NCBI GenBank assembly: GCA_036377595.1
Contig: DASUYB010000175.1
Span: 21,191 to 85,190, forward strand
DNA: 64,000 bases
DNA from: Longimicrobium sp.
GTDB lineage: Bacteria; Gemmatimonadota; Gemmatimonadetes; Longimicrobiales; Longimicrobiaceae
Direction of reading: 5' to 3'
Of the stretch, positions 6,248 to 64,000 are shown in pieces. Position 1 is the stretch's first letter, and every line of letters starts with the position of its first letter. Both the position numbers and the translations under genes were made by a program. The notes below the pieces were generated by a model. It made no database searches. It had not been told where the DNA came from and worked only from the letters and a program-made list of their open reading frames with translations.

Positions 6248-6979
<732 letters not shown>

Positions 6980-11859: not shown

Positions 11860-38188
<26,329 letters not shown>

Positions 38189-45200: not shown

Positions 45201-48200
45201 CGACCGAGGCGATGCGCTGGCGGGGAACGCCGTCCACCTGCACGAAGCGGGTGCGCAGCGCCTCGTGCCGCGCCACGATCCGGGCCAGCGCCCGCTCCAG
45301 CGCGACCTCGTCCAGCTCGCCGCGGAGACGGGTCGCGTGGAAGATGCGGTACGCCCAGGCGTCGGCGCCCAGCGAATCCAGGAACCACATCCGCTGCTGC
45401 GCGTAGCTCAGCGGCGGATGCACACCGTGCACGCGCGGGGTGATCGCCGGCAGCGCGCTGCGGCGCGAGGACTCGGCGCCGCGCGCGAAGTCGGCCAGCA
45501 CAGGGCGCTCGAACAGGTCCAGCAGCGACACCTCGGTGCCCAGCGCCTCACGGACGCGGGAGATGACCTGCACCGCCAGCAGCGAGTGGCCGCCCAGCTC
45601 GAAGAAGCCGTCGTTGCGCCCCACGCGCTCCACGCCCAGCAGCTCCGCCCAGATGGCGGCCACCGCGGCCTCGGCCTCGCTCACCGGCGCCTCGTAGGCG
45701 CGGCGGGCGTAGGCGTCCTCGGCCGGCGCGGGAAGCGCGCGGCGGTCCAGCTTGCCGGTGGGGGTCAGTGGCAGGCTCTCCAGCCGCACGTAGGCGGCGG
45801 GCACCATGTGCTCGGGGAGCCGCTCGCCCAGGTGCGCCCGCAGCGCCTCGGCCCCGGCGTCGGCGCCCAGGTAGTACGCCACCAGGCGCTGGTCGCCCGG
45901 CGCATCCTCGCGCGCCGCCACCACGGCCTCGCGCACGGAGGGGTGCTCGGCCAGGCGCGCCTCGATCTCGCCCAGCTCCACCCGGAAGCCGCGCACCTTC
46001 ACCTGGAAGTCGTTGCGGCCCAGGAACTCCAGCATCCCGTCGGGCCGCCAGCGCGCCAGGTCGCCCGTGCGGTACAGGCGCGCGCCGGGCTCGCGCCCGA
46101 ACGGATCGGGGACGAAGCGCTCGGCCGTCAGCGCGGCCCGGCCCAGGTATCCACGCGCCACGCTGGCGCCGCCGATGTACAGCTCGCCGGCCACGCCGAC
46201 GGGCACGGGCTGGCCGGAGCGGTCGAGGAGATACGTGCGGCTGTTGGCCATCGGGCGGCCGATCGGCACCCGCGCGTCCGTCATCCCCCCACAGTCCAGC
46301 GCGGCGACGGCCGTGGCGGCCTCGGACGGGCCGTAGAGGTTGTGGATGGTGGCGCCGGAGAGCCGCTCGCGCGACCGCGCCAGCAGCGAGCCGGGGAGCA
46401 CGTCGCCGCCGCACAGCACGCGGCGCACCCTGGCCAGGCTCGCCACCTCGGGACGGTCGACCAGCAGCTGCAGGAGCGCGGGGACGGCATTCAGCGCGGT
46501 GACGCCCTCGCGCCGCATCAGCCGCACGAGCGCCTCGGGGTCGGGGCGCGCGCCCTCGGCCAGCACGATCCGCGCGCCCACCGTCAGCGGCCACACCAGC
46601 TCGCGGATCGAGCCGTCGAAGCTGAGCGTGGTGTGGCTCAGCATCGTCTCGTCCTGACCCAGCCGCCACGCGGCCTGCGCCCACGACACGCGCTGCACCA
46701 CGTTGCCGTGCGTGTTCATCACCCCCTTGGGGCGCCCGGTGGAGCCCGAGGTGTAGATCACGTACGCCAGATTCTCCGGCCCCACTCCCGCCCGCGCCGG
46801 GTTCGACTCCGGCCCGTCCGCCGCCTCGCCAATGGAGAGGACGGGGACGTCCAGCCCGGCAACGAGATCCGCCATCGTCCCGCGCTGGGCGGCGTCGGCC
46901 AGCACGCACGCCGGCGCGCTGTCCTCGAGCATGTAGCGCAGCCGGTCCTCGGGATACGCCGGGTCCAGCGGCACGTACGCCCCGCCGGCCTTCAGCACGC
47001 CGAGCATCGCCACCACCATCTCGGGGCTGCGCTCCAGGCAGACGGCCACGCGGACGTCCGGGCCCACGCCCCGCGCCGCGAGGTGGTGCGCCACCCGGTT
47101 CGCCCGGCGGTTCAGCTCGGCGTACGTCACCTCGTCGTCGTGGAACACCAGCGCCACCGCGTCGGGCGTGCGCTCCGCCTGGCGCTCGACCAGCTCGTGG
47201 ATGGTCGCCTCGCGCGGATACTCCATCTCCGTGGCGTTCCACTCGTCCACCACGAACGAGCGCTCGGCGCCGGAAAGGAGCGCCAGCTCGTCCACGCGCA
47301 GGGTGTCGTCGGCGGCCATCTGCTGCAGCGCGCGGCGCAGGTAGCCCGCGTAGCGCCGCACCGTGCCCTCGTCGAACAGCGCGGTGGCGTACTCCAGCTC
47401 GCCCTCGATGCGGCCGCTCTCCTCCTCGAGCGAGAGGGAGAGGTCGAACTTGGCCATCACCGCCGACGTGCCGGGGAGCTGCTGCATCTCCAGCCCCGGG
47501 AACTCCAGCGCGCCGCCGGGATTGTTCTGCAGTGAGAGCATCACCTGGAAGAGCGGGGCGTGCGCCACGCTGCGCGCGGGATCGACCACCTCCACCACGC
47601 GCTCGAAGGGGATGTCCTGGTTGGCCTGCGCGCCCAGCGAGCGCGCCTTCACCCGCCCCAGCAGCTCCGCCACCGTCGGCGAGCCCGAGACGTCCACGCG
47701 CAGGGCGAGGGTGTTGACGAAGAAGCCGATCAGCCCCTCGATCTCGCGCCGCCCACGGTTGGCCGAGGGCGAGCCGACGACGACGTCCGCCTGGCCGGAG
47801 AGACGGCTGAGGACGGCCGCCCACCCGGCCAGCAGCGTCATGTACAGCGTCGTCCCGTGGCGCCGGGAGAGCGCCTTCAGCGCCGCGGTCAGCGTCTCGT
47901 CCAGCTCCACGCGGACGGACGCGCCGGTGTGGTCCATCCGCGCCGGGCGAGGACGGTCCGCCGGCAGCTCCAGCAGCGCCGGCGCGCCGGCCAGCGCCTG
48001 GCGCCAGTACGACGCCTGCGCCTCGATCACCTCGCCCTCGATCCAGCGGCGCTGCCAGACGGCGTAGTCCGCGTACTGGATCGGCAGCGGCGGAAGGGGA
48101 TTCTCCCCGCCCGCGCGGAAGGCGGCGTAGAGCGCGCCAAGCTCGCGGCTGAACACCCCCGACGACCATCCGTCGGAGACGATGTGGTGCATGGTGATGA

Positions 48201-51200
48201 GGAGGACGTGGTCGTCCGCCGCCATGCGGATGAGCCGGCCGCGGATCAGCGGCCCGTGCTCCAGGTCGAACGGCGCCTCGGCCTCGTCCTCCATCAGTCC
48301 CGCCAGCGTCTCCTCCGCCGCGGGATCAGCCGTCAGGTCGTGCTCGATGAGAGCGAAACGCGTCTCGGATGCGATGCGCTGCACCGGCGCGCCGTCCACC
48401 TGCGCGAACGACGTGCGCAGCACCTCGTGCCGCGCGACCAGCGCATCGAGCGCGCGCACCAGCGCGTCGCGGTCCAGCTCGCCACGCAGGCGGCGGCGGC
48501 GCGGCACGTGGTAGGTGCTCCCCAGGTTGCCCAGCTGCTCCAGGAACCAGAGCCGCTGCTGCGCGAAGGAGAGGGGCAGATCGGATTCCCGCTCGGCGAC
48601 CTCGATCGCGGGAAGCTCGGCGTGCGCCGCGGCGTCGACCGCGCGCGCGAAGTCGGAAAGGACGGGGCGCTCGAAGACGTCGCGCAGCGCCACCTCGGCA
48701 CCCAGCGCCTCGCGCACGCGACTGGTCACCTGCACCGCGAGCAGCGAGTGGCCGCCCAGGTCGAAGAAGCTGTCGTGCCGCCCCACGCGCTCGGTGCCCA
48801 GCACCTCGCACCAGATCCCCGCCAGCACCTCCTCGGTCGTCCCCACCGGCGGCTCGTAGGCGCGGCGCGCGTAGGCGTCCTCGGCCGGCGCGGGAAGCGC
48901 GCGGCGGTCCACCTTGCCGCTGGAGCCGAGCGGGATGTGGTCCAGCCACACGTAGGCGGCGGGGACCATGTGCTCCGGCAGCCGCGCGGCCAGGTGCGCC
49001 CGCAGCGCGGCGACGTCGACGTCCTCGGCGCCGACGCAGTAGGCGACCAGGCGCTGGTCGCCCGGGCCATCCCTGCGGGCGATGACGACGGCCTCGCACA
49101 CCGACGGGTGCTCGAGGAGGCGCGACTGGATCTCGCCCAGCTCCACGCGGAAGCCGCGGATCTTCACCTGGAAGTCGGCGCGCCCCAGGAAGTCGAGCGC
49201 GCCGTCGGCGCGCCAGCGGCCCAGGTCGCCCGTGCGGTACAGGCGCGCGCCCGGCTCGCGGCCGAACGGATCGGGGACGAAGCGCTCGGCGGTCAGCTCG
49301 GGCCGGTTCAGGTAGCCGCGCGCCACCTGCACGCCGCCGATGTAGACCTCGCCCGGCACGCCGGCGGGGACGGGGTCGCCGCGCCGGTCGAGCACGTAGA
49401 CGCGGTTGTTGTCCAGCGGCCGGCCGATGGGGACGATCGCCCCGGAGTTCCCCGCCTCGTAGAGGATCGAGGTGGAGACGATCGACGCCTCGGTGGCGCC
49501 GTACATGTTGCGCAGGCTCACGCCCAGGCGGCCGCGGAACTCCTCGGCCAGCTCGGCGGGAAGCGCGTCGCCGGCGCAGTTCACGTTGCGCAGCGAGGCC
49601 AGCTCGCCGAAGCGGGGATGCCGCAGGAGGGCGCGCAGCAGCTCGGGCACCACCCCCAGCGAGGTGATCCCGTGGCGCGCCACCAGGTCGATCAGCTCCG
49701 ACGGGTCCATCGCCTCGCGCTCGCGCGGCAGCACCAGGCGGGCGCCGGCCAGCAGCGGAACGAAGAAGGCGGGAACCGACGCGTCGAAGGCCACCGGCCA
49801 GCGCTGCAGGATCCGGTCGTCGGGCGACGTCACCCAGACCTTCCGCATCCAGCCGAAGAAGTTCACCACGCCCCGGTGCGGGACGAGCACGCCCTTCGGA
49901 TGCCCCGTCGAGCCGGAGGTATAGATGACGTACGCCAGGTGGTCGGGGGTCAGCCCCGCCGGCTGCGGATCCCAGTCCGGTCCGTTCGCCTCCGCGCCGC
50001 CGCCGAGGGCGACGACGGGAATCTCCATCTCCGCGAAGAGCGACTCGGCCGCCACCCGCTGCCCGGCGTGCGTCACCACCGCCGCGGGCGCGCTGTCGGC
50101 CAGCATGAAGCGCAGCCGGTCCTCGGGATACGCCGGGTCCAGCGGCACGTACGCACCGCCGGCCTTCAGCACGCCGAGCAGCGCCACCACTGTCTCCAGG
50201 CTGCGCTCCATGCAGATGGCCACGCGGCCGTCCGGCCCCACGCCGCGCGCGGCGAGATCGTGCGCCAGGCGGTTCGCCCGGCGATTCAGCTCGCCGTAGG
50301 TGATCGTCTCGCCCTCGAACTCCACGGCGACGACGTCCGGCGTGCGCTCCGCCTGCCGCTCGAAGAGCTGATGGATGCACGCGTCGGACGCGTACTCGGC
50401 TTCCGTGGCGTTCCACTCCTCCACCACCTCCCGCCGCTCGGCGTCGGAGAGGAGCGTCAGCTCGTCCACGCGCAGGCGGTCGTCGGCTACCATCTGCCGC
50501 AGCACGCGGCGCAGGTAGCCCAGGTAGCGCACCACCGTGGCCTCGTCGAACAGCGCGGTGGCGTACTGCAGCTCGCCCGCGATGCGGCTGGCGCCCTCCT
50601 CCAGCGACAGCGCCAGGTCGAACTTGGCGGTGGCGCCGGAGACGGACGGCAGCGGCGCCGGCTCCAGCCCCGGCAGCTCCGTCGTGCCCAGGTCGTTGGT
50701 CTGCCAGACGAACATCACCTGGAAGAGCGGCGTGTGCGCCAGGCTGCGCACCGGGTCGACCAGCTCCACCACGCGCTCGAAGGGGATGTCCTGGTTCTGC
50801 TGCGCCTCGAGCGTGGCCGCCTTCACCTGCCGCAGCAGCTCGGCCACGGTGGGCGTGTCGGAGAGGTCGACGCGCAGCGCCAGCGTGTTGACGAAGAAGC
50901 CGATCAGCCCCTCCACCTCGCGCCGCCCGCGGTCGGCCGACGGCGAGCCGACGACGACGTCGCCCTGGCCCGAGAGACGGCCGAGCGTGGCCGCCCACCC
51001 GGCCAGCAGCGTCATGAACAGCGTGGTGCCGTGGCGCAGCGACAGCGCCTTCAGCCCCGCCGTCAGCTCCTCGTCCAGCTCCACCCACACCGAGGCGCCC
51101 GCGTGGTCCATCCGCGCGGGACGCGGCCGATCCGTGGGGAGCTCGAGGAGCGCCGGCGCGCCGGCCAGCTTCCGCTGCCAGTACGCCGCCTGGGTCTCCA

Positions 51201-54200
51201 GCACCTCGCCCTCGATCCAGCGCCGCTGCCACGCGGCGTAGTCGGCGTACTGGATGGGGAGGGGGGAGAGGGGATTCGGCTCGCCCGCGCGGAAGGCGGC
51301 GTAGAGCGCGCCCAGCTCGCGGCCGAAGACGTCCGACGACCAGCCGTCGAAGATGATGTGGTGCACGGTGACCAGCAGGACGTGGTCGTCCGGCGCCATG
51401 CGGATCAGCCGGCCGCGCACCAGCGGGCCCTGCTCCAGGTCGAAGCGCGCCGTGGCCTCCTCCGCCAGCACCCGTACCAGCGCGTCCTCGGCGCCGGCGT
51501 CGCGGGTCAGGTCGATCTCCACCAGCGGGAAGCGGCTCTCCGCCGCCGGCGCGATGCGCTGCACCGGCGCGCCGTCCACCCGCGGGAAGGTGGTCCGCAG
51601 CGTCTCGTGCCGGGCGACCAGTGCGTCCAGCGCGCGCACCAGCGCGTCGCGGTCCAGCGCGCCGCGCAGACGGCGGCGCCAGCGCATCTGGTACGCGCTC
51701 CCCAGCCCGCCGAACTGCTCCAGGAACCAGAGCCGCTGCTGCCCGAACGACAGCGGCAGGTCGGCCCCGCGCTCGACCGCCTCGATGCGGGCGAGCTCGG
51801 TGTGGACCGCGTCTCCGAGCGCGCGGGTGAAGTCGGCCAGCACGGGGCGCTCGAAGAGGGCGCGCAGAGGAATCTCCGCCTGCAGCGCCTCGCGCACGCG
51901 GGTGATGGCCTGCACCGCCAGCAGCGAGTGCCCGCCCAGCTCGAAGAAGTGGTCGTTGCGGCCGACGCGGTCGACGCCGAGCACCTCGGCCCAGATCTCC
52001 GCCAGCGCCTCCTCCGTCTCCCCCATCGGGGCGACGAACTCGCGCGTGGACCAGGCGTCGCTCTCCGGCGCGGGCAGCGCCTTGCGGTCCGCCTTCCCGC
52101 TGGGGGTCATCGGCAGCGCCTCCAGCCGCACGAAGGCGGCGGGGACCATGTACTCCGGCAGGCGCGCGGCCAGGTGCTCGCGCAGCGCGGCGGCATCCAC
52201 CTCGCCCTCGCCCGCCCAGTACGCCACGAGACGCTTCTCGCCCGGCGCGTCCTCGCGCGCGACGACCACGGTCTCGCGCACGTCGGGGTGGTCGGCCAGC
52301 TTCGCCTCGATCTCGCCCAGCTCGATGCGGAAGCCGCGGATCTTCACCTGGAAGTCGGTGCGGCCCAGGAACTCCAGCGTCCCGTCTGCCCGCCAGCGCG
52401 CCAGGTCGCCCGTGCGGTACAGCCGCGCGCCGGGCTCGCCCGAGAACGGGTCGGCGACGAACTTCTCCGCCGTCAGCTCGGGGCGGTTCAGGTAGCCACG
52501 CGCCACCTGGCCGCCGCCCACGTGGATCTCGCCCGCCACGCCCACGGGCGCGGGGCGGCCCTGCTCGTCGAGCACGTACACGCGCGCATGCAGCACCGGC
52601 CGGCCGATCGAGCGCCAGCTCTGCGGGTCGCGCGTGACCTCCTGGAGCGTCGCGTTGACCGTGGCCTCGGTGGGGCCGTAGAGGTTGCGCAGCTCGGGGA
52701 GATAGCCGCCGCGGCGGAACCAGGCCGCCAGCATCGCGGGCTCCACGGCCTCGCCGCCGGTCTCCACCAGGCGCACGCAGGGGGGGATGGCCACGCCCTC
52801 CTCGCCCACCAGCAGCTGCCAGAAGCGCACGGGGAGGTCGGTCACCGTCACCCCGTGGCGCTCGCAGCGGGCCCAGAAGGTCTCGGCGCTCTCCAGCCAG
52901 GCGTCGCTGCGCAGCACCGACGCGGCGCCGGACAGGATCGCCCCGAAGATCTGCTCCACCGACGCGTCGAAGGTCACCGGCGCGAACTGCAGCACGCGGT
53001 CGCCGGGGCCGATCCCCAGTCCCGCCTGCAGCCCCTCCACCTGCATGCACAGCGAGCGGTGCTCGACCATCACCCCCTTGGGCGTGCCGGTGGAGCCCGA
53101 GGTGTAGATCACGTACGCCACGTGCCGCGGCGTCAGCCCCGCGCGGGCGGGATTGACGTCAGGCTCGCCGGCAAACGCCTCCGGCGCGGAGAGGTCGACC
53201 AGCGGCACGCCGAAGCCGGCCAGCGCGTCCGCGAGGTGCGACTGCGTCAGCACCAGCGCGGGGGCGGCGTCCTGCAGCACGGCGGCGATGCGCTCGGCGG
53301 GATGGCTGGGGTCCAGCGGCACGTACGCGCCGCCGGCCTTCAGCACGCCCAGCAGCGCCACCATCATCTCCGCCCCGCGCTCCACGCACAGGGCGACGCG
53401 GACGTCCGGCCCCACGCCGCGCGCGGCCAGGTGGTGCGCCAGGCGGTTGGCGCGCCGGTTCAGCTCGCCGTACGTCAGCTCCACCTCGCCGGCGACGACG
53501 GCGATCGCCTCGGGGGCGCGCGCGGCGTGCTCCTCGAACAGGTCGGGGGCGCAGCGCTCGCGCGCGGGCGCCATCTCCCTGCGGTTCCACGCGTCGACGA
53601 CGAGCCGACGCTCGCTCTCCGGCAGCACGTCGACCGCGGCGACGGCCGTCTCCGGCGCCGTCTCCAGCGCGTCGACCAGCCGCTCCAGCGCGGCGTGCAT
53701 CAGCTCGGAGATCCGCGCCGGATCGATCGAGACGTCGACCTGCGGCGTCAGCGTGAAGCCCTCGCCCCAGTCGTCCACCGACAGCGTGAGCGGATAGTTG
53801 GTCCGCTCCTCGCCGCGCAGCATGCGGATCCCGTCCCACGCCTGCCGGCTCTCCGCCTCGTCCACGCGGATGCCGCCCGAGCCGCCGTCGCCGTAGCCGT
53901 GGCGGTAGTTGAGCAGGGTGGTGAAGAGCGGGGTGGGCGCCTGCACGCCGCTGCAGCGCTGCGCCAGCGCCAGCGACGCGTGCTCGTGCCGCAGCAGCCG
54001 CGCGAGGGTGCGATGCGTGTCGCGGACGGCGTCCTCCACGCCCTGCCCGTCGACGCGCACGCGGACGGGAAGGGTGTTGATGAACACACCGAGCACGCGG
54101 TCGGCGCCCTCGCCGCCTTGCATGCGGCCGAAGAGGAGGGTGCCGAACACCACGTCCGGCTGCCCCGACGCGCGCGACAGCACCTGCGCCCAGGCGACGT

Positions 54201-57200
54201 GGAAGAGGCTGGCCGCGCTCACCCCCAGCGCGCGCGCCCGGGCGCGCAGCCGGAGCGCGAGGTCGGAGTCCAGGTGACGCTCGGCCTCGTGCGTCTCCGA
54301 CCCGTCGCTCAGCACGTCCATCAGGCCGAACGGCGCGGTGGGCTCGGCCACGTCGGCCAGCATCTCGCGGAAGAAGCGCTCGTGCTCGGCCGGCGTCAGC
54401 CCGGCGCGCGCCTGCGCCACGAAGTTGCGGAACGGCAGCGGCGCGGGAAGCTCGCCCGCGCGCCCCAGCAGGTGCGCCTGCACCTCGGCCTGCAGCACCT
54501 CGAGCGTGGTGTGGTCGCTGACCAGGTGGTGCATGCGCAGCAACAGCAGCCACCCGCCCTCGCCGTCCTGGGCGATGTAGGCGTGCAGCATGGGCGCGCG
54601 GCGCACGTCGATCCGGCTCTGCCGCAGGCTGCTCGCCCACAGCCGGCCGGCCGCGTCGCCCTCCGCCCCGTCGAGCTGAATCTCGTCGACGGGGAGATCG
54701 GCCGAGCGCCAGACGACCTGCACCGGCTCGCGCAGCCCCTCCCACACCACGCCGGTGCGGAAGATGTCGTGGCGGGCGATGATGGCCCGCAGCGCGCCCA
54801 GGTACGCGTCGAGCCGCTCGCGGCCGGCGAAGCCGAGGAGGCTCACCAGCAGGTAGGGATCGTCGTCGCCGTGGCTCAGCAGGTGGTGGAAGAGGATGCC
54901 TTCCTGCAGCGGGGCCAGCGGGTAGATGTCCTGCACGTTGGCGGCGCCGCCCTCCACGCCCGCGACGATGCGGTCGATCTCCCCCTGGCTCAGCTCCACC
55001 AGCGGCAGCATCTCCGGGCGGATGCGATCGCACCCGGCGGGGATGGCGTTGGCGGGGACGACCACCTCGGCGGATTCGCCGCTGACCAGCGCGGCCAGCT
55101 CGGCCAGCGTGGGCGCGGTGAACAGCGCGGGGATGTCGGCGTGCAGCCCGTGCGGCCGCATCCGCGCGATCAGCGTCACCACCAGCAGCGAGTGGCCGCC
55201 CAGCTCGAAGAAGTTGTCGTGCCGGCCCACGCGCTCCACGCCCAGCACCTCGGCCCAGATCTCCGCCAGCGTCTCCTCGGTCTCACCCACCGGCGGCTCG
55301 TAGGCGCGCCGCGCGTACGCGTCCGCGCCGGGGGCGGGAAGCGCGCGGCGGTCGACCTTGCCGTTCTGCGTGAGCGGAAGCGCCTCCAGCCGCACGTAGG
55401 CGGCGGGGACCATGTGCTCCGGCAGCCCGGCCAGGTGCGCGCGCAACTCGTCGATCCCGATCTCCGGGCCCGCGTAGTACGCCACCAGGCGCTTATCGCC
55501 CGGCGAGTCCTCGCGCGCCACGACGACGGCCTCGCGCACGTCGGGATGGTCGGCGAGGCGCGCCTCGATCTCGCCCAGCTCGATGCGGAAGCCGCGGATC
55601 TTCACCTGGAAGTCGTTGCGGCCCAGGTACTCCAGCATCCCGTCCGCCCGCCAGCGCGCCAGGTCGCCGGTGCGGTACAGCCGCGCGCCCACCTTGCCGG
55701 AGAACGCGTCGGGGACGAAGCGCTCCGCCGTCAGCTCGGGACGGTTCAGGTAGCCGCGCGCCAGCTGCACGCCGCCGATGTGGATCTCGCCCGTGACGCC
55801 CACCGGCACCGGCTCACCCGAGGCGTCCAGCACGTAGATGCGCGAGTTGGCGATCGGACGACCGATCGGCACCGATGCCGCACGATCGCGCTCCGCGTCG
55901 AAGCGGTGGATCATGCAGCCGACGGTCGCCTCGGTCGGCCCGTACTCGTTGTAGATCTCCGCACCGCCCAGCGCGCGCTGCGCGGCTTCGGCCACGGCCG
56001 TCTTCAGGTCCTCGCCGCCGAGGATCAGCGCGCCCAGGCGGCGCGTCTCCTCATCCCCCTGCTGCAGCAGCGCGAGGTGCGCCGGCGTCAGCTTAGCGAC
56101 GTCGACCCGGTCCTCCCCGATCACCCGCAGGACGGGGAGATCGGAAGCCTCTCCCTCGCGGTACACCACGATCGTCCCGCCCGTGATGAGGGGGACGTAG
56201 ATCGAGGTGACGGTGAGGTCGAACGCGATCGACGAGTAGAGCGGGAAGGTGCTCGCCTGGCCGCCAGCGTAGGTGTTCGCCGCCCAGGTGGCGTAGTGCG
56301 TGAGACCGCGATGGGGGACGACGACGCCCTTGGGACGGCCGGTGGAGCCAGAGGTGTAGATGACGTACGCCGCGTGCTCGGGAGTGACCGCGCGCGCCGG
56401 GTTCGTCTCCGCCTGATCGGCCCACGCCTCCGCATCGGCATCGACGCGAACCAGCGGCAGGGTGGCGTCCGCGAAGCGCTCCGGCAGCGAGCCGTGCGTC
56501 AGCAGCAGCGCGGGCGCGCTGTCGGCGAGCATGTACTGCAGGCGCTCGTCGGGGTAGCCGGGATCCATCGGCACGTACGCGCCTCCGGCCTTGATGACGG
56601 CGAGCAGCGCCACCACCATCTCCAGGCTGCGCTCCATGCATACGGCCACCGGCACGTCCGGCCCGACGCCCATCCCCGCGAGGTGGTGCGCGAGGCGGTT
56701 CGCGCGGGCGTTCAGCTCCGCGTAGGTCAGCGACTCGCCCTCGAACTCCGCGGCGACGGCGTGCGGCGTGCGCTCCACCTGCCGCTCGAACAGCTCGTGC
56801 ACGCAGCGGTGGCCCGGGAACGGCGAGTCCGTCGCGTTCCACTCCTCCACCACCTGCCGCCGCTCGCCGTCCGAGAGCAGCGCCAGCTCGTCCACGCGCA
56901 GCGTGTCGTCCGCCACCATCTGCTCGAGGACGCGGCGGAAGTAGCCCACGTGCCGCAGCACCGTCGCCTCGTCGAACAGCGCGGTGGCGTACTCCAGCCG
57001 GCCGGAGATGCGGTCGTTCCCCTCTTCGAGCGAGAGGTCCAGGTCGAACTTCGCCGTCGTCCCCGAAACCGCGGGGAGCGCCGCGGCCTCAACGCCGGGA
57101 AGCTCCAGCGGCGCGCCGTCGTTGTTGTGCCAGGTGAACATCACCTGGAAGAGCGGCGTGTGCGCCAGGTTGCGCACGGGATCGGCGATCTCGACGACCC

Positions 57201-58830
57201 GCTCGAAGGGGATGTCCTGGTTCCGCTGCGCGCCCAGCGTGCCGACCTTGGCCTGCGCCAGCAGCTGCGCCACCGTGGGCCGCGCGGAGAGGTCGAAGCG
57301 CAGCGCCAGCGTGTTGACGAAGAAGCCGATCAGCCCCTCGATCTCGCGCCGCCCGCGGTTGGCCGTCGGCGCGCCGATGACCACGTCGCGCTGGCCCGAG
57401 AGCCGGCTCAGCACCGTCGCCCATCCCGCCAGCAGCGTCATGAAGAGCGTGGTGCCGTGACGGCGGCCCAGCGAGCGCAGCCCCTCCGTCAGCGCCGCGT
57501 CGAACTCCAGCGACACCGAGCCGCCTCGATGGTCCATCCGCAACGGACGCGGGCGGTCGGTGGGGAGCTCGAGCAGCGCGGGCGCGCCGGCCAGCGCCTC
57601 GCGCCAGTACGACGCCTGCGCCTCGAGCACATCGCCCTCGACGAAGCCACGCTGCCAGACGGCGTAGTCCGCGTACTGGACGGGGAGCGGGAGAAGGGGA
57701 TCGGGCTGCCCCGCGCGGAACGCGGCGTACAGCGCGCCCAGCTCGCGGCTGAACACGCCCAGCGACCACCCGTCCGAGACGATGTGGTGCATGGTGACGA
57801 GGAGGACGTGGTCGTCCTCGGCCATGCGCACCAGCCGGCCGCGGAGCAGCGGGCCGTGCTCCAGGTCGAACGGCGCGACGGCCTCCTCGGCCGTCAGCCG
57901 CGCCAGCGTCTCCTCCGCGGCCGCGTCGCCACGGAGATCGTGCTCGGCCAGCGCGAAGCCGCCTTCCAGCGCCGGCGCGATACGCTGCACCGGCGCGCCG
58001 TCCTCGAGCGCGAACGTGGTCCGCAGCGCCTCGTGGCGCGCGACCAGCGTGTCGAGCGCGCGAAGCAGGGCGTCGCGGTCCAGCGCGCCGCGCAGGCGGA
58101 AGCCGCGCGGGATGTGGTAGGTGCCGCCCAGGTTGCCGAGCTGTTCCAGGAACCACAGCCGCTGCTGCGCGAAGGAGAGCGGCAGGTCGCCGTCCCGCTC
58201 CACCGTCTCGATCTCCGAGAACGCGGAGGGCGGCGTCCGCTCCACCATCGCGGCGAAGTCGGCCAGGACGGGGCAGAGGAAGAGGACCTGCGGCGGAAGG
58301 TCGCGCCCCAGCGCGTCGCGCACGCGCGAAAGCACGCGCACGGCCAGCAGCGACTGACCGCCGTTCTCGAAGAAGTTGTCGTGCCGGCCGACGCGCTCCA
58401 TCCCCAGCACCTCGGCCCAGATCCCCGCCAGCACCTGCTCCGTCTCGCCGACGGGAGGCTCGTAGCCGCGGGTGACCCAGGCGTCGTCGCCGGGCTCGGG
58501 GAGCGCGCCGAGGTCCACGGAGCCGTCTTCCGCGCGCGGGAAGGCGTCCAGGCGCATGTAGCCGCCCGGCACCATGTACTCGGGCAGGTGCCCCAGCATG
58601 TGCGCGCGGAGGCTCTCCCCTGCCACTTCGACGCCGGGCTCGGCCAGGTAGTAGGCGATCAGGCCCTTCTCGCGGGCCGCTAGCCTGCGGTTGTCCACCA
58701 CCGCGTCACGGACCGCGGGATGCTGGACGAGCGCGGCCCGGATCCGCTCGAGGTCGACCTGGCGGCCTCGGACGTTCCGCACCCATTCCAGCGCCCGGGC
58801 AAGGCCCGCGGTCTCTTGTTCGCTCTTCAT
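42214..58830 (-). CDS. Non-ribosomal peptide synthetase 'NRPS-A', 5538 aa: (degenerate A-subdomain)-T / C-A-T / (E/C)-A-T / C-A-T / C-A-T / C-A-T plus a short C-terminal docking tail
   Basis: One uninterrupted ORF with an ATG start. Five A3 cores lie at ~56328, 53075, 49893, 46724 and 43555. There are six carrier motifs. There are four LCL-like C domains (HHI[VI][SF]DGWS) and one [15 protein letters not shown]-type domain. There is no TE. The protein ends ...[28 protein letters not shown]. Confidence 0.97.
42217..45465 (-). other. NRPS-A module 5: divergent C, then A-T and a docking tail
   Basis: The C domain starts [17 protein letters not shown] at ~45377-45420 and carries [10 protein letters not shown]3 core (SGSTGKPKG) at ~43555-43598. 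T Ser at 42412-42414. Hand code DVRTLGMVAK (Arg at position 239; unassigned). Confidence 0.78.
45466..48630 (-). other. NRPS-A module 4: C-A-T
   Basis: C motif at ~48545-48585. A3 core at ~46724-46768. T Ser at 45583-45585. Hand code DGRNLGLTAK (Arg at position 239; unassigned). Confidence 0.78.
48631..51810 (-). other. NRPS-A module 3: C-A-T
   Basis: C motif ([12 protein letters not shown]) at ~51725-51762. A3 core (SGSTGHPKG) at ~49893-49937. T Ser at 48745-48747 (FFDLGGHSL). Hand code DAPGNAMIVK (unassigned). A5 reads NMYGATE rather than GPTE. Confidence 0.78.
51811..55065 (-). other. NRPS-A module 2: E/C-like condensation domain, then A-T
   Basis: [25 protein letters not shown] at ~54855-54927. 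The N-terminal HH motif is offset by one residue from HH[IL]xxxxGD. The second motif is [10 protein letters not shown]3 core at ~53075-53120. T Ser at 51925-51927. Hand code DAEDEGLVNK (unassigned). Confidence 0.72.
55066..58200 (-). other. NRPS-A module 1: C-A-T, predicted Asn
   Basis: C motif at ~58147-58190. A3 core at ~56328-56370. T Ser at 55189-55191. Hand code DLTKIGEVGK against the canonical Asn code DLTKLGEVGK. Confidence 0.8.
58201..58830 (-). other. NRPS-A N-terminal loading region: relic of an A-domain C-terminal subdomain (aa 1-112) plus carrier domain T0 (aa ~125-198)
   Basis: The region aligns to the A8-A10 part of the other A domains but is degenerate. [12 protein letters not shown] replaces [24 protein letters not shown] replaces PNGKIDRRALP, so the invariant A10 Lys is Ser (codon 58519-58521). 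T0 reads [10 protein letters not shown], with its Ser at 58351-58353. Confidence 0.8.
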
Positions 58831-58881
58831 GCACCCACCGTTGATTGCCGGCCCGCCAGCCCTTCGGCTCGCGCGCGGATC

Positions 58882-58910
58882 GGGCGGACGCCGCGGCGTC
58901 CGCCCCTTTT
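58882..58910 (+). terminator. Plus-strand-oriented terminator-like hairpin (GC stem followed by CTTTT) in the 5' leader of NRPS-A
   Basis: GGGCGGACGC-cg-GCGTCCGCCC at 58882-58905, followed by CTTTT at 58906-58910. No plus-strand gene reads into it. On the minus strand it is preceded by AAAA and lacks a U-tract. Confidence 0.2.
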
Positions 58911-58994
58911 AGTCCTAAGTCCTGGGTCCTAAGTCCTAAGTGCTTCGTCCTTGGTCACTTAGGACTTAGGACTTGGGACTTAGGACTTTGGACT
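58911..58994. repeat. Heptamer palindromic element, copy 3: 32-nt arms, a 13-nt loop, and one extra degenerate unit
   Basis: Left arm AGTCCTAAGTCCTGGGTCCTAAGTCCTAAGTG at 58911-58942. Loop CTTCGTCCTTGGT at 58943-58955. Right arm CACTTAGGACTTAGGACTTGGGACTTAGGACT at 58956-58987. TTGGACT at 58988-58994. It lies between the PKS stop (59044) and the NRPS-A ATG (58830). Confidence 0.95.
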
Positions 58995-59043
58995 CGTCGT
59001 TGTTCGTCCAGCGGCGGGAGACGAATCCCCCGCCGATCCCCCG

Positions 59044-62000
59044 TTACTCCCCGACCAGCACCTGGTGAACCGCCTCGACGTGCGGGAAGCGCATGGCCTC
59101 GGAGTGCGCGCATGCCACCGGCAGCACCTCGACGTCGGTGTTCAGCGCGCGCTTCCACCCGTACGAGTCGGCGTGCGGCTCGCCCAGGCCCCACTCGCCC
59201 AGCCGGTTCATGATCGAGAACGGCCCCAGGCCGCACCGGACCAGCTTCACCTTCGTCCCGTTCAGGGAGCGGGGCGCCGCGTAGCCGGCGAGGTTCGAGC
59301 GGTTGCTGTAGTCGTCCACCGTCTTGTCGACGGAGGCGGGCTCCAGCGACGCGCCGCGGATGCGGTCGTCGAGGTAGCGGTCCACCACCGCCAGCGCCTG
59401 CTCCATGTCCGCCTCGGCGCCCTCGAACTCGTCGAGCACGCGCGCGGGGACGGCCCCGTCGGGGGCCAGCGCCTCGAGCACGGCGGTCTTGATGAAGAGC
59501 CGCTTGAGCTCGTCCTCGTTCTGCGCCTCGGCCAGGCTCACGTAGGCGAAGGAGTCGACCAGCACCAGCAGGCTCACCTCGTGTCCCGCCTGGATCAACT
59601 GGTTCGCGACCTCGACCGCCACCGAGCCGCCGAAGGAGAAGCCCACCAGGCGGTAGGGCCCGCGCGGCTCCGTCTGCACGATCACCTTCGCGTACTCGGC
59701 GGCCTGGCGGACGAAGTCGTGCCGCACGTCGTCCGCCGCCCGGTCGCCCGGGCTGCCGGAGAGGACGTACACGCTGTATCCACGTCCCTCGATCGACGCG
59801 AGGTCGGTGAAGTCGTAGACGCTGTCGGCGATGCCGGGGACGCAGAACACCGGCGGCCCGGCCTTCTCGCCCACGGCCACCGCGACGGCCGTCGAAGGCG
59901 CCGGCTGCGCGTCGTCGCCCCCGCGCGCGGCCACGATCTGCTCGGCGAGGAAGACGGCGAGCCGCGCCACCGTCGGGTGCGCGAAGAAGCTCCCCGCGCG
60001 GATGGGGATTCCCACGCCGCGCTGCACGTTGTTGCGCAGCTCCGTCATCATCAGCGAGTCGATCCCCGCGTCGACGAAGTTGGTCTCGCGCTTGACGTTG
60101 GCGGTGGGCACGCCCAGCACCTTGGCCACCTCGACCTGCAGGAACTCCTCGACCACCCCGGGAAGCTCGTCCGCCGCCGAGCGCGCGATGCGCCCGGGCC
60201 ACTCGTCCGCGCCGCCCGCGGCGGCGCCGGGAGCCTCCTCCAGCAGCTCGAAGAGCGGGTCGGCCGCCGCCTTCGCGCGCCGCGAGCGGAGCTTGGCGAC
60301 GACGGCCTCGGTGCGGCCCTCCACCAGCAGCCGCTCCAGCGCCTGCTGGCCCTCTTCCTTGCCGACGAGACGGTGCTTGCCGGTGAGCCCGAGCGAGGCC
60401 GCCATCCCCTCGCCCTCCCACGCGCCCCAGTTGATGGAGAGCGCCGGGAGCCCCGCGCCCGCGCGGTGGCGGGCCAGGCCGTCCATGAAGGCGTTGGCCG
60501 CGGCGTAGTTCCCCTGCCCCGCGCCGTCGATCACCGCCGAGGTCGACGAGAAGCAGGCGAACCAGCCGATCCCGCGGTCCTTCGTCAGCTCGTGCAGCAC
60601 CAGCGTGCCGTCGACCTTGGCGCGGAACACGGTCTCGAAGCGCTCGCGGTCGAGGTGGCGGAGGATGCCGTCGCTCAGCACGCCCGCGCAGTGGAAGACG
60701 CCGGCGACCGGCTCGGCGCGCTCGAGCACCGCGGCCATGTCGTCCATCGACGCCACGTCCGCGTTCTCGACCATCACCTCCACGCCCGCCTCGCGCAGTT
60801 TCTCCACCCGCTCCAGCGCGCTCCCCGCCGGCATGCGGCGCGACAGCAGCACCAGCCGCCTGGCGCCGCGCGCGGCCAGCAGCTCGGCCACGTGCAGCCC
60901 CAGCGCGCCCAGCCCGCCGGTGACCACGCAGGCCGCGTCCGCCGGCACCGACAGCGTGCCGTCGCCCGCGCCCGCGCCGTCGAGGGAGACGATCACCTTG
61001 CCGACGCTGCGCCCCGAGGCCAGCCAGCGGAAGGCGTCGACCGCCTCCTTCAGCGCGAACTCCTTGGCCGGCAGCGGGCGGAAGTCGCCGCGCTCGAAGC
61101 CGTCCAGCACGTGCCCCATCAGGCGGCGGTACTGGTGGTCGCCGCCGGCCTCGCCCTCGCCGATCTCCAGCGCGGTGTAGGCCACGTCGGGGCGGTAGGT
61201 CCGCGCCTCCTCGTCGCTCCAGATCCCCAGCTTGCCGATCTCCACGAAGCGGCCGCCCTCGGCCATCACGTCGAAGCCGGCCTGGATGAAGTCGCCGGTG
61301 AGGGAGTTCAGCACGATGTCGACGCCCGCGCCGCCCGTGGCCTCGCGGATCGCGTCCACGAAGCGGGGGTCGCGCGAGTCGACGATGTGCTCGATCCCCT
61401 GCGACCGCAGGAAGCCCCACTTGGGCATGCTGGCCGAGGCGAACACCTCGGCGCCCACGGCCTGGGCGATCTGCACCGCGGCCTGCCCCACGCCGCCCGC
61501 GGCCGCGTGGATCAGCACCCGGTCGCCCGCCTTGATCCGCGCCACGTCGTGCAGCGCGTACCAGGCGGTCATGAACACCGTCGGCAGCGCCGCCGCGTCG
61601 CCCCACCCCAGGATCGCGGGCTTCTTCACCACCTCGTGCTCGCGCAGGACGTGGTGGCTGGCCAGGCAGCCGCGCGAGTAGGCGATCACCTCGTCGCCCG
61701 CGGCCACGCTCGTGACCGCGCTTCCCACGCGGGTGACGACGCCCGCGCCCTCGAAGCCGAAGCGCAGGTCCTGCGGCTCGCAGACGGGGATCTTCCCGAG
61801 GACGAAGAGGCACTCCTTGAAGTTCAGCGGGGCCGCCTTGATCTCCACCTCCACCTCGTCCGGGGCCAGCACCGGGATCACCGCGCCCGGCGCCGGGGCC
61901 AGGTAGAGGTTGTCGAAGGTGCCGAACGCGCGGGTCTGCAGCTGGTAGCGGCCGTCGGGACGCTCGAGCCCGGCGTTCGCGCTCGCGAGGCGATCGAGCC

Positions 62001-64000
62001 GCATCACGAAGCGGCGCCCGCCGCGGAAGGCCACGCGCTCCTCGGCCGACGACGCGGCGATCTCGGCGGCCAGCGCCGCGGCGTCCACGCCGCCGAAGTC
62101 GAAGTCCACCGTGGTGCAGCGGAAGTCGGGGTGCTCGCCGCGGATGGTCGTCGCCAGCCCCCACAGCGCCGCCTGCGGCACCGCCGCGAAGGGCACGCGC
62201 TCGCCCTCCACCGCGTGGCACCCGGCGGTCGCGATCCACAGCCGCGGCGCCGTGTCGAGCGTCTCGCTCAGCGCGTTGACCACGCCCAGCGCCTGCTCGG
62301 CCAGGTCCAGCGCGCTCCCGCCGTCCAGCGCGCCCAGCAGCACCACGTTGCGGTGCTGCCCGGCGGAGGCCTGCGCCCACTCCTCCACCAGCGCGGGGAG
62401 GTCCGCCGCGAGCGCCTCGCCCGCCGGCAGTTCCACCACCGAGGCCGTGCTGCCCGGCGCGTCGAGCGCCGTCTTCAGCGCCGCCGCGGCCTTGCGGCTG
62501 GCGCCGGCGCCGGACAGCACCAGCGTCGACGCCGCGCCGTCCTGGCCAGCGGGCGCGTCCTGGCGGATCCAGCGGAACTCGTAGTGGGGATCCTCGTCGG
62601 CGGCGTCGGCCGACTCGGGCATCTCCACCGCCGCCTGGTGGTATTCGTCGATCCGGCCGACGACGCGGCCGTCGTCACCCAGGAGGGTGATGGTGGCGAA
62701 GAGGTGCGTCTCGTCCTCGGCCTCGATGGTCGTGTGCACCCAGCAGGTGCGGGGGACGCGCTCGAACACGCGCACGCCGCGCAGCTTCACGGGGAGCGTG
62801 GGGCCCAGCCCCGAGTACTCGTCGAGCAGGGTGCCGGCGACCTGGAAGGTCGAGTCGGCCAGGACGGGGTGGAACACGTAGCTCGCGGCCGGATCGCCCA
62901 GCGCCACGGGAAGCTCGATCCGCCCCAGCGCCTCGCGCTCGCCGCGCCACATCCCGGTGAGCGCGCGGAAGTTCGGGCCGTAGTTGACGAACTCCATCCC
63001 GGCGTACATCGCGTCCAGGTCGACGCGCGCCGACATCCGGTCCTTCACCGCCATCGGGTCCAGCGCCTCGCCGGGCGCGCCCTCCGCGGCGGCCAGGCGG
63101 CCGCGCGAATGCACCGTCCAGCTGCGCTCCGCCTGCACCTGCGTCTCGGGGCGGCTGATGATCTGGAAGCGCGGCTGCTCGCCGGGGCAGGCGGTGGCCA
63201 CGGCCTGCAGCGCCCGCCCGTCGTCGCCCGCGAACATCAGCGGCTTCTCGAAGCGGATCTCCTCGACCGAAGCCACGCCGCCGGGGCTCGACGCCGCGCC
63301 CATCGCCAGCGCCATCTCCAGGTAGCCCGCGCCGGGGAAGATCGGCGTGCCGCCCAGCCGGTGGTCGGCCAGGTAGACGGGCTCGGAGGGCGAGACCCAG
63401 TTCTCGTACGACTGCACGTCGTCGGTCACCGCCCAGCGCGCGCCGAGCAGGGGATGGAAGACCTCCTCCGGGCGGCTGCCGCGCTTCCCCTTCCGCCGCT
63501 CGTCCGGCACGTACCGGCTGCGCTGGAAGGGATACTTGGGCAGCGCCACGCGGACGGGGTGCTCCTCGCCGTACATCTCGTCCCAATCGACCTTCACGCC
63601 CTCCGCCCACAGCCCGCCCAGCGCGGCCAGCAGGTGCTCGCGGTCGGGATGCGCGCTCTTGGCCTTGCGCATCGACGGGATCACCCGCAGCGCCGAGTCG
63701 GCCGCGCGGATGATCGAGGAGAGCGCCGTCCCCGGCCCCACCTCGACCGCCACCATGCTGGCGTCCTCGGCCAGCCGCTCGACGGCGTCGTGGAAGCGCA
63801 CCGCGGCGCGGATCTGCGAGACCCAGTACTCCGGGTCCGTGGCCTGCGCGGCGGTGATCGGCCCGCCGGTGACGTTGGAGAAGAAGGGGATGCGGGGCGC
63901 GCGCGGGGTGACGCCCTCGAACGCCGCGCGGTAGCGGGCCAGCGCCGGCTCCATCAGCGGCGAGTGGAACGCGCGCGAGGTGCGCAGCCGGGTGACGTGG
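59044..64000 (-). CDS. Type I polyketide synthase module, 5'-truncated by the window edge: ...AT-DH-(psiKR)-ER-KR-ACP-TE
   Basis: The frame is open from 64000. The residues just upstream of the track's first Met read ...TRLRTSRAFHSPLMEP, the AT-domain AFHS motif, so the KS and most of the AT lie outside the window. Downstream motifs are listed in the domain features below. Confidence 0.93.
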   Translation of the reverse strand, partial: HVTRLRTSRAFHSPLMEPALARYRAAFEGVTPRAPRIPFFSNVTGGPITAAQATDPEYWVSQIRAAVRFHDAVERLAEDASMVAVEVGPGTALSSIIRAADSALRVIPSMRKAKSAHPDREHLLAALGGLWAEGVKVDWDEMYGEEHPVRVALPKYPFQRSRYVPDERRKGKRGSRPEEVFHPLLGARWAVTDDVQSYENWVSPSEPVYLADHRLGGTPIFPGAGYLEMALAMGAASSPGGVASVEEIRFEKPLMFAGDDGRALQAVATACPGEQPRFQIISRPETQVQAERSWTVHSRGRLAAAEGAPGEALDPMAVKDRMSARVDLDAMYAGMEFVNYGPNFRALTGMWRGEREALGRIELPVALGDPAASYVFHPVLADSTFQVAGTLLDEYSGLGPTLPVKLRGVRVFERVPRTCWVHTTIEAEDETHLFATITLLGDDGRVVGRIDEYHQAAVEMPESADAADEDPHYEFRWIRQDAPAGQDGAASTLVLSGAGASRKAAAALKTALDAPGSTASVVELPAGEALAADLPALVEEWAQASAGQHRNVVLLGALDGGSALDLAEQALGVVNALSETLDTAPRLWIATAGCHAVEGERVPFAAVPQAALWGLATTIRGEHPDFRCTTVDFDFGGVDAAALAAEIAASSAEERVAFRGGRRFVMRLDRLASANAGLERPDGRYQLQTRAFGTFDNLYLAPAPGAVIPVLAPDEVEVEIKAAPLNFKECLFVLGKIPVCEPQDLRFGFEGAGVVTRVGSAVTSVAAGDEVIAYSRGCLASHHVLREHEVVKKPAILGWGDAAALPTVFMTAWYALHDVARIKAGDRVLIHAAAGGVGQAAVQIAQAVGAEVFASASMPKWGFLRSQGIEHIVDSRDPRFVDAIREATGGAGVDIVLNSLTGDFIQAGFDVMAEGGRFVEIGKLGIWSDEEARTYRPDVAYTALEIGEGEAGGDHQYRRLMGHVLDGFERGDFRPLPAKEFALKEAVDAFRWLASGRSVGKVIVSLDGAGAGDGTLSVPADAACVVTGGLGALGLHVAELLAARGARRLVLLSRRMPAGSALERVEKLREAGVEVMVENADVASMDDMAAVLERAEPVAGVFHCAGVLSDGILRHLDRERFETVFRAKVDGTLVLHELTKDRGIGWFACFSSTSAVIDGAGQGNYAAANAFMDGLARHRAGAGLPALSINWGAWEGEGMAASLGLTGKHRLVGKEEGQQALERLLVEGRTEAVVAKLRSRRAKAAADPLFELLEEAPGAAAGGADEWPGRIARSAADELPGVVEEFLQVEVAKVLGVPTANVKRETNFVDAGIDSLMMTELRNNVQRGVGIPIRAGSFFAHPTVARLAVFLAEQIVAARGGDDAQPAPSTAVAVAVGEKAGPPVFCVPGIADSVYDFTDLASIEGRGYSVYVLSGSPGDRAADDVRHDFVRQAAEYAKVIVQTEPRGPYRLVGFSFGGSVAVEVANQLIQAGHEVSLLVLVDSFAYVSLAEAQNEDELKRLFIKTAVLEALAPDGAVPARVLDEFEGAEADMEQALAVVDRYLDDRIRGASLEPASVDKTVDDYSNRSNLAGYAAPRSLNGTKVKLVRCGLGPFSIMNRLGEWGLGEPHADSYGWKRALNTDVEVLPVACAHSEAMRFPHVEAVHQVLVGE
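59047..59870 (-). other. PKS C-terminal thioesterase (TE) domain
   Basis: PPVFCVPGIADS..., the nucleophile elbow LVGFSFGGSVAVEVA (GxSxG at ~59625-59650), and a C-terminal ...VACAHSEAM providing a candidate catalytic His. Confidence 0.8.
59930..60170 (-). other. PKS acyl carrier protein (ACP) domain
   Basis: NFVDAGIDSLMMTELRNNV, with the Ser codon at 60055-60057. Confidence 0.88.
60400..60960 (-). other. PKS ketoreductase (KR) catalytic subdomain
   Basis: Rossmann motif VVTGGLGALGLHVAELL at ~60901-60935, then ...SSTSAVIDGAGQGNYAAANAFMD (catalytic Tyr context), ending INWGAWEGEGMA. Confidence 0.85.
60985..61950 (-). other. PKS enoylreductase (ER) domain
   Basis: MDR-fold. The NADPH motif VLIHAAAGGVGQAAVQIAQ is at ~61480-61520. 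The domain ends ...GRSVGKVIVSL. Confidence 0.85.
62590..63465 (-). other. PKS dehydratase (DH) domain
   Basis: HPLLGARW... at the N-terminus, the active-site motif LADHRLGGTPIFPGAGYLEM (HxxxGxxxxP), and a later VFHPVLADSTFQ (DxxxQ-like) motif. Confidence 0.8.
63580..64000 (-). other. PKS acyltransferase domain, C-terminal part
   Basis: RAFHSPLMEP...IPFFSNVTGG...YWVSQIRAAVRF...VEVGPG. An xAFHS motif is usually associated with malonyl-CoA specificity; the upstream residue here is Arg, so specificity remains tentative. Confidence 0.8.

Follow-up and report, generated by a model that had tools for sequence, protein, structure and literature searches.

The PKS gene and the domain order of its product

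The 64,000-nucleotide stretch of Longimicrobium sp. DNA that was analyzed at its full length (GenBank assembly GCA_036377595.1, contig DASUYB010000175.1, positions 21,191 to 85,190; hereafter the window) carries a polyketide synthase (PKS) gene that closes with its own thioesterase (TE) domain and lies upstream of two nonribosomal peptide synthetase (NRPS) genes, NRPS-A and NRPS-B; the role of this TE is the subject of the present work. The GC content of the window is 72-75%, and the minus strand carries all of its large genes, which are arranged from high to low coordinates as the PKS, NRPS-A, a phosphopantetheinyl transferase (PPTase), a methyltransferase (MT), a pyridoxal phosphate (PLP) enzyme, a free acyl carrier protein (ACP), NRPS-B and an FkbH gene. 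Beyond FkbH, at lower coordinates, there are a MacB/FtsX permease, an ABC ATPase, a major facilitator superfamily transporter, a DUF3179 protein and a flavin monooxygenase. Downstream of the PKS, on the same strand, 5 + 8 condensation-adenylation-thiolation (C-A-T) modules, 13 in all, are followed by a terminal TE, as an earlier note on this DNA had described. In addition, 91% of the 31-mers of the window were found in one soil-metagenome run, and other soil and rhizosphere metagenomes hold relatives at ~95% identity.

Pfam annotation of the translated minus-strand frame 59047-63999 gave, in order, Acyl_transf_1 (partial, cut by the window end), PS-DH/PKS_DH_N, ADH_N/ADH_zinc_N (the enoylreductase, ER), KR (ketoreductase), PP-binding and Thioesterase (PF00975), which agrees with the order of acyltransferase (AT), dehydratase (DH), ER, KR, ACP and TE in the earlier note. 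A HMMER search of 1.84 billion representatives recovered the complete protein, P0005, of 2360 aa, with 100% identity over all 1651 window residues. It opens directly with a ketosynthase (KS) at residue 8, the domain that had been expected beyond the window end, so that the full architecture is KS-AT-DH-ER-KR-ACP-TE. The features of the PKS gene are as follows.

59044..64000, minus strand: PKS gene, 3' 70%; frame open to the window end, full product P0005
63652..63984, minus strand: AT, C-terminal part, with the xAFH malonyl-type motif 'RAFHS'
62623..63456, minus strand: DH, HxxxGxxxxP, His at 63361-63363
60988..61863, minus strand: ER, HAAAGGVGQ NADPH motif
60415..60933, minus strand: KR, catalytic Tyr at 60505-60507
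59956..60141, minus strand: ACP, GIDSL, Ser at 60055-60057
59047..59853, minus strand: type I TE, GFSFGG, Ser at 59635-59637, Asp (LVLVDS) at 59554-59556, His (ACAHS) at 59104-59106

All catalytic motifs are intact in P0005, comprising KS Cys175/His309/His349, AT Ser622 with the xAFH malonyl-type motif, DH His922, the ER NADPH motif, KR Tyr1874, ACP Ser2024 and TE Ser2164/Asp2191/His2341. The ACP ends at residue 1348 of the window frame and the TE occupies residues 1383-1651, fused right behind the carrier. Judged by these motifs, the PKS is a self-contained, single-module, fully reducing synthase whose domains are ordered as in animal fatty acid synthase (FAS). Among 334 KS domains of all fetched loci, a set that is biased by the way in which the loci were gathered, the KS of P0005 showed a mean identity of 45.6% (maximum 59%) to those located behind an NRPS A domain, compared with 39% to those behind a PKS ACP or KR. 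This affinity fits priming from an A-T unit and, together with the A-T genes found upstream in relatives (see below), argues against self-priming.

Class and fold of the thioesterase

The TE matches PF00975 with an E value of 1.6e-16 (1e-17 when searched alone) and 61.7-65.5 bits against a cutoff of 26.4. Its Pfam boundaries, 59047-59853, fall close to the 59047-59870 proposed previously, and the GFSFGG elbow is present. The profile aligns with this TE through its N-terminal half only, and relatives cover positions 2-212 of 222. Nevertheless, Ser, Asp and His are invariant across the family alignments, and the His is also aligned to that of the NocB TE. The loss of catalytic residues that the earlier note had named as the mark of a dead TE is not seen, and by its alignments the domain is a genuine type I megasynthase TE with an intact catalytic apparatus.

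The best sequence matches in the PDB were terminal TEs of NRPSs and PKSs (NocB, fengycin, EntF, PksA, Pks13 and FAS), with good alignment only at the nucleophile-elbow half. An AlphaFold (AF2) model (predicted local distance difference test score 78) showed an alpha/beta core and a four-helix lid at about TE residues 120-205, and the top Foldseek matches of the model were all megasynthase TEs. An NRPS TE, human FAS TE, NocB TE and Pks13 TE lay within one order of magnitude of one another at template-modelling (TM) scores of about 0.55-0.60. As the TE of Pks13, an acyltransferase, ranks beside that of FAS, a hydrolase, the fold is no guide to the chemistry of the TE. Neither sequence nor fold tells whether this TE is a hydrolase or an acyltransferase, and release of a free acid and transfer to T0, the first carrier of NRPS-A, are inseparable by sequence.

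Two other classes were considered and discarded. A type II (editing) TE was ruled out by the fusion of the domain to the PKS in cis, since type II enzymes are free-standing proteins of about 250 aa; stand-alone relatives of this TE do exist (P0078 and P0155). The carrier-to-carrier acyl shuttles SyrC and CmaE use a Cys nucleophile in a GxCxG elbow, and a shuttle of this type was ruled out by the Ser elbow GFSFGG, the Ser being present in all family members. No docking element was found behind the TE.

A rare PKS-TE family and its genomic context

A full-length TE match was defined as a single matched stretch over TE query residues ~14-283 among the 150 best hits of the HMMER search. Within these hits, full-length PKS relatives numbered three (P0048, P0067 and P0124; 2306-2421 aa), with 38-42% identity to P0005 from end to end, a common domain order and an invariant triad. 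The PKS-TE family is thus very rare, with four full-length members, including P0005, among the 150 best hits. The other full-length TE matches were P0078 (308 aa), P0137 (754 aa), P0006, a 64%-identical fragment that spans the C-terminal half, and the C-terminal TE of the NRPS P0055; P0092 was rejected as a member because it is an NRPS. TE identity is 26-29% across taxa of very different GC content, and the triad is kept throughout. In blastp searches with the TE, family TEs were nearest (92-104 bits), followed by the terminal TEs of ordinary modular PKSs and NRPSs and the second TE of a tandem pair (65-79 bits), and the NRPS-B TE of the window reached 45 bits.

Other searches added little. 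Word-based homologue searches with the TE recovered almost nothing, and tblastn of the TE against plasmids found only generic NRPS/PKS TEs at 24-32% identity. For a locus scan the TE alignment diverged too far, and the full-length family alignment run against genomes returned generic reducing PKSs, including only three distant terminal TEs of modular lines. A contig scan with the ACP-TE region gave no match, an exact look-up of P0005 no contig, and a metagenome scan with P0005 other PKS families. When the N-terminus of the KS was used in a word search, the homologues returned reached at most 50% identity, and P0005 itself was not among them.

Two relatives could be read in their genomic context, in the unrelated loci L082 and L083. 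In L083, which is of low GC content, the gene of a 644-aa A-T didomain protein (8074-10005) overlaps the PKS start, and in L082 the gene of a 655-aa A-T protein (5003-6967) stops 15 nt short of the PKS. In both loci the PKS-TE is followed, after a gap of 182-295 nt, by a large NRPS gene on the same strand whose product opens with C-A-T and has no T0. The gene of P0048 is likewise closely flanked, with one gene overlapping its start and another 90 nt past its stop. The coupled A domains, which match TIGR01733 at 294-306 bits, belong to the amino-acid type of NRPSs and carry the Lys2-like motif HDPIxRD, and the proposal that the upstream gene encodes a fatty acyl-AMP-forming ligase (FAAL) was rejected, since in NCBIfam it falls among NRPS A domains of the amino-acid type and Lys2. 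In the NRPSs of L082 and L083, the first C domain has 7C1H/7C1K, which we take to be the rhizomide starter C domain, as best PDB match, followed by ObiF1 and CDA-C1, and looks like a lipoinitiation (starter-type) C domain. These arrangements suggest that the PKS-TE is probably a conserved cassette that travels with NRPS genes.

Several further observations were made on these loci. The approximate specificity codes of the L082 and L083 A-T proteins, which share the Lys2-like A4 motif HDPIxRD, begin with D-P-R-H and hint at an acidic or otherwise unusual starter, not a plain fatty acid. The AT of P0067 (L082, 6986-13906) lacks the active-site Ser (GHSxG replaced by GEGIG) and falls below the Pfam cutoff, so that this PKS would need an AT acting in trans or may not extend at all. 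Upstream of the A-T/PKS-TE cassette, L082 carries an NRPS end with the order C-A-T-TE-TE (3-4763), and the second TE of this tandem pair matches the window PKS TE over its full length at 27-28% identity.

The start of NRPS-A

NRPS-A begins with a remnant of an A domain, an orphan carrier (T0) and a first C domain (C1). The features of the NRPS genes, and of two small genes that bear on the loading of a carrier, are as follows.

42214..58830, minus strand: NRPS-A, (A remnant)-T0-[C-A-T]x5, 5538 aa
58501..58830, minus strand: decayed A-domain remnant at the NRPS-A N-terminus, A7 to A10 (Pfam AMP-binding_C)
58243..58434, minus strand: T0 carrier, GGQSL, Ser160 at 58351-58353
56881..58191, minus strand: C1, elongation-type condensation domain, HHIVSDG
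11852..38188, minus strand: NRPS-B, [C-A-T]x8-TE, 8778 aa; terminal TE about 11909-12640
38878..39141, minus strand: free-standing acyl carrier protein, 87 aa
9949..11760, minus strand: glyceryl-carrier-protein synthase of the FkbH family, stand-alone (TIGR01686 at 302 bits, cutoff 147)

Alignment identified the A remnant as a paralog of the 13 A-T units of the same NRPSs. The remnant has lost the A7/A8 motifs and carries Ser104 in place of the A10 Lys. Identity between this N-terminal region and its paralogs, and among the paralogs themselves, is distributed as follows.

A7-A8: remnant to paralogs 24%, among paralogs 83%
Rest of the small subdomain: remnant to paralogs 45%, among paralogs 71%
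Linker: remnant to paralogs 55%, among paralogs 64%
T0: to paralogs 57%, among paralogs 63%

Conservation therefore climbs along the remnant toward T0, which keeps 18 of the 20 paralog-invariant positions, including Ser160. The pattern indicates that T0 is the leftover of a truncated elongation-type module, not a purpose-built loading carrier. The earlier note had described T0 as an orphan and did not mention the decayed A remnant that precedes it. The truncation of NRPS-A is thus old, with 43 kb of NRPS frame intact since, and T0 appears to be maintained. That T0 was kept while its A domain decayed implies loading in trans or, at the least, a need for this carrier.

C1 shares 72-78% identity with eight of the nine other class-I C domains and 62% with A_C5. 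Its matches were Txo2/Txo1 at 473-483 bits, compared with 59 bits for CDA-C1, and no 7C1H entry reached 1e-10, which marks C1 by similarity as an ordinary elongation C domain and not a starter C domain. The main class of C domains as a whole matches Txo2/Txo1 at E 1e-141 to 1e-144, which places the NRPS close to the teixobactin synthetases at the C-domain level; it may be distantly related to the teixobactin family and stem from an uncultured soil bacterium. Asp235 is retained in all 13 A domains, and entry of a plain fatty acid via an A domain is accordingly not expected. These NRPS A domains are the only AMP-binding enzymes found in the 64-kb window, in which no FAAL or acyl-CoA ligase was found, in line with the earlier note.

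The PKS/NRPS-A junction

The PKS and NRPS-A genes are separated by a spacer with a conspicuous repeat.

58831..59043, no strand: PKS/NRPS-A spacer, 213 nt; GC hairpin, 58882-58905; (AGTCCTA)n palindrome, 58911-58994

It had been suggested that the PKS might belong to a neighboring pathway, and the junction was examined accordingly. That the PKS, with its upstream genes, is functionally unrelated to the NRPSs, or was joined to them by a metagenome misassembly at the repeat, might be read from the strong hairpin and very abundant repeat within 213 nt, from the absence of any single Logan unitig that bridges 58941-58958, and from the 5' truncation of NRPS-A at exactly this point. However, AGTCCTA palindromic arrays occur at three intergenic sites of the window (7035-7195, 11783-11859 and 58911-58994; 31 matches compared with 0 expected), the other two being the gap between both ABC-transporter genes and the FkbH/NRPS-B gap. 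The palindrome thus recurs inside the cluster and marks no cluster boundary, and it gives no ground for the separate operon boundary that the earlier note had envisaged. The element is a genome-wide, intergenic and very abundant repeat resembling repetitive extragenic palindromes, with a depth in the source metagenome of about 520 compared with about 15 for its flanks, and this abundance is the reason that no single unitig crosses it. Read depth is equal on either side of the spacer in four independent metagenome runs. Moreover, the A remnant decayed long ago and has non-coding sequence before it, where a chimeric join would cut in mid-domain. The repeat was consequently rejected both as a cluster edge and as a misassembly.

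The genes on either side are also alike, with a GC content of 0.739, a GC content at third codon positions of 0.96-0.98 and a codon-usage correlation of r = 0.97 between the PKS and the NRPS genes. No sigma-70-like promoter was found in the spacer, and its sole terminator-like site faces the other strand. L082 and L083 show the same PKS-TE/NRPS adjacency and strand, a synteny that makes an unrelated neighboring pathway unlikely. With shared composition and a repeat that lies inside the cluster, a foreign or misjoined PKS has little probability.

Two minor observations concern the junction and its surroundings. At 58839, nine nt 5' of the NRPS-A start codon and within the putative ribosome-binding stretch, relatives from three other metagenomes have one additional G. 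The Logan unitigs of the source run stop at 63973.

A proposed role for the PKS-TE and its alternatives

Taken together, the PKS-TE probably serves a lipopeptide pathway as its acyl-supply arm rather than as module 1 of a colinear hybrid. In the pathway that we propose, the KS would receive its starter, probably from an A-T didomain protein whose gene lies immediately upstream of the PKS as it does in the relatives; on the ACP of the PKS itself, the starter would then be lengthened by malonyl units and undergo full reduction. The TE would off-load the saturated chain, most likely as a free acid by hydrolysis, and the acid would re-enter the peptide line after separate activation by a housekeeping acyl-CoA ligase or by the upstream A-T protein. 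The entry point, a starter-type C domain in the relatives, would here have been remodelled to the A-less T0 with an ordinary C domain behind it. A gene for acyl activation close beyond the window, which the earlier note had taken as a sign against a common line, is probably present in a modified form, in that the relatives have a coupled A-T gene, not a FAAL, before the PKS and the KS groups with KSs fed by A-T units.

Hydrolytic release of a saturated acid that is re-activated elsewhere is the most likely of the readings considered, although we hold it tentatively and at somewhat less than an even chance. It is favored because hydrolysis is the default for this domain order, because the TE is conserved whatever the start of the NRPS looks like, and because a direct transfer from ACP to C would make a TE in cis counter-productive. 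Several points weigh on the other side. Hydrolysis and acyl transfer by the TE are indistinguishable by sequence or fold, the synteny support comes from two loci only, and the 64-kb window is without any enzyme able to re-activate a free acid. The gene 5' of the PKS lies beyond the window, the A-T protein there being deduced from the relatives, and C1 is not of the starter type, so that the acyl-CoA route of the relatives is not obviously applicable here. Finally, the conservation of T0 despite the decay of its A domain implies a loader in trans, for which the TE is one candidate.

Transfer of the acyl group by the TE to a carrier-bound or a peptide acceptor, both taken together, is less likely than hydrolysis. 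In the carrier-bound form, which by itself we regard as unlikely, the acyl-O-Ser intermediate would be resolved by the phosphopantetheine thiol of T0, or by the hydroxyl of a glyceryl unit placed by FkbH on T0 or the free ACP, and the product would be the donor for C1. A stand-alone FkbH with a free ACP could load a carrier without an A domain, and both are encoded in the cluster (FkbH at 302 bits). T0, besides, has no working A domain and yet keeps 18 of 20 invariant positions beside a remnant that is down to 24-45% identity, there is no ester-forming or starter C domain before T0, and the TE of the acyltransferase Pks13 is among the nearest folds. FkbH takes the place of A domains in known lines, and the glycerate is joined by an ester bond to a fatty acyl group in vioprolide and corramycin, whose assembly lines start as FAAL-ACP-C-FkbH-T with a special C domain that forms the ester (PMC8949500; PMC10099666); here the TE would stand in for that C domain, and intermolecular esterification by a TE is documented for FrsA (PMC7794379). 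However, the relatives with the same TE have a starter-type C domain and no T0, so that the conserved role of the TE must work without T0. The free ACP is already a natural partner for FkbH, the known carrier shuttles SyrC and CmaE use Cys where this TE has Ser, and the evidence is purely circumstantial. An intermolecular acyltransferase in place of a C domain at the PKS/NRPS interface, most attractively one that yields an O-acyl-glyceryl starter on T0 or the free ACP, is accordingly judged quite doubtful.

The frs cluster has a small TE-bearing line upstream of its main NRPS genes, and the present cluster likewise has two TEs, one per line, with the small line upstream. By analogy, the PKS TE might move its acyl group to a side chain of the peptide that bears a hydroxyl or amino group, late in the pathway or after release, a role for which the intermolecular transesterification by the FrsA TE (PMC7794379) and the intact triad of all family members regardless of the NRPS start could be invoked. 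It is nevertheless improbable, as the starter-type C domain in the relatives already implies N-terminal acylation, no feature of the window points specifically to side-chain acylation, and T0 would be left unexplained. About equally improbable is an editing or idle TE, with the acyl chain passing from the PKS ACP to C1 while T0 is bypassed or structural, or with a neighboring A domain loading T0 with an amino acid and this PKS adding no lipid to the peptide. Some assembly lines do have a TE domain on an early protein, as in MbtB. C1 is an ordinary elongation C domain (at the 72-78% identity to eight of nine class-I paralogs given above), and T0 is paralogous to internal T domains, which makes loading by A1 in trans or in cis conceivable. 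In contrast, a triad conserved at 26-29% TE identity argues for an essential catalytic role, a TE in cis would compete with the downstream C domain for acyl-ACP, and a docking element behind the TE is missing. Release by hydrolysis is the reading that we prefer.

The lipid tail decides the activity of many peptide antibiotics, and the making and hand-over of the lipid are a main engineering handle. A FAS-ordered PKS with its own TE before an NRPS represents a rare but conserved solution to this task. Should the TE hydrolyze, the cassette would be a portable module for making a dedicated acid; should it transfer, it would represent a new PKS-NRPS coupling chemistry, and an O-acyl-glyceryl starter would mean that a truncated loading module was recruited as acceptor. 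In either case, the decayed A remnant beside a conserved T0 offers a clear snapshot of an assembly-line start that was rebuilt in evolution.

Other features of the cluster

The accessory genes between the two NRPS genes comprise the following.

41430..42206, minus strand: Sfp-type PPTase, starting 7 nt past the NRPS-A stop
40336-41433, minus strand: 2-ketoarginine-methyltransferase-like MT
39143-40339, minus strand: GntC/VioD-like PLP enzyme

The MT and the PLP enzyme are translationally coupled and probably make a modified (methylated or cyclised) arginine building block. A role of the MT and the aminotransferase as lipid handlers was rejected on account of their resemblance to 2-ketoarginine MT and GntC/VioD-like enzymes.

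Three C domains, which follow T1 in NRPS-A and both T1 and T3 in NRPS-B (33599-34951 is one example), form a second class with only 24-30% identity to the ten others. Their core reads HHLxxDH, they share an 18-residue motif at the N-terminus, and PvdL and McyB are their best PDB matches. A dual epimerisation/condensation function is probable for them and would account for the absence of separate epimerisation domains from NRPS-A and NRPS-B. The start codon of NRPS-B is spanned by a 175-nt direct repeat (38176-38350 and 38414-38588, 82% identity), and its leader of 690 nt, otherwise gene-free and of lower GC content, has long hairpins at 38735-38822; the hairpin matches of an Rfam search of the leader were all below the gathering threshold.

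Comparison with known systems

Keyword searches of the literature found no characterized KS-AT-DH-ER-KR-ACP-TE synthase before an NRPS, which is not proof of absence, and we know of no characterized member of this PKS-TE family. Several systems nevertheless share parts of the arrangement. In surfactin, rhizomide, daptomycin (DptE/DptF) and CDA, a starter C domain carries out lipoinitiation and the lipid is activated separately; to our knowledge, a dedicated TE-terminated PKS as lipid source is absent from the described systems of this kind. The NRPSs of the relatives likewise open with a starter-type C domain (PDB matches 7C1H and 4JN3) right after the PKS-TE gene, whereas C1 of the window differs in type and no FAAL or acyl-CoA synthetase is seen in the window. 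In mycolic acid synthesis, the TE of Pks13 transfers the product to trehalose. There, too, a TE ends a lipid-building PKS, and the folds agree at a TM score of about 0.58, with a weak NCBIfam match; however, Pks13 is a non-reducing ACP-KS-AT-ACP-TE protein with about 20% identity to the window TE.

The assembly lines of vioprolide, corramycin and cystomanamide resemble the window in combining FkbH, an A-less carrier at the NRPS start and a dedicated lipid-supplying unit. They differ in that vioprolide-type lines have a FAAL-activated lipid, an ester-forming C domain and FkbH in cis, whereas the window has a PKS-TE, no C domain before T0 and a separate ACP, and its FkbH is not in cis but is encoded by a separate gene at the far end of the cluster, 46 kb away. 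The FR900359 cluster with FrsA likewise holds two assembly lines and two TEs in one cluster, and the TE of its small line serves the main line (PMC7794379). FrsA is, however, a C-A-T-TE NRPS module that makes an acylated amino acid, whereas the small line of the window is a reducing PKS.

Animal FAS and MAS-like synthases show the same KS-AT-DH-ER-KR-ACP-TE order, a malonyl-type AT and intact reductive motifs, and the human FAS TE is among the best structural matches, although identity to the FAS TE is only about 19-20%. In addition, FAS primes itself and stands alone, whereas the KS of the window PKS groups with NRPS-fed KSs and its gene sits in an NRPS cluster. In its presumed mode of working, the PKS-TE resembles FAS; in its position in the cluster it recalls the small FrsA line with its terminal TE, or the arm that supplies the lipid in lipopeptide pathways.

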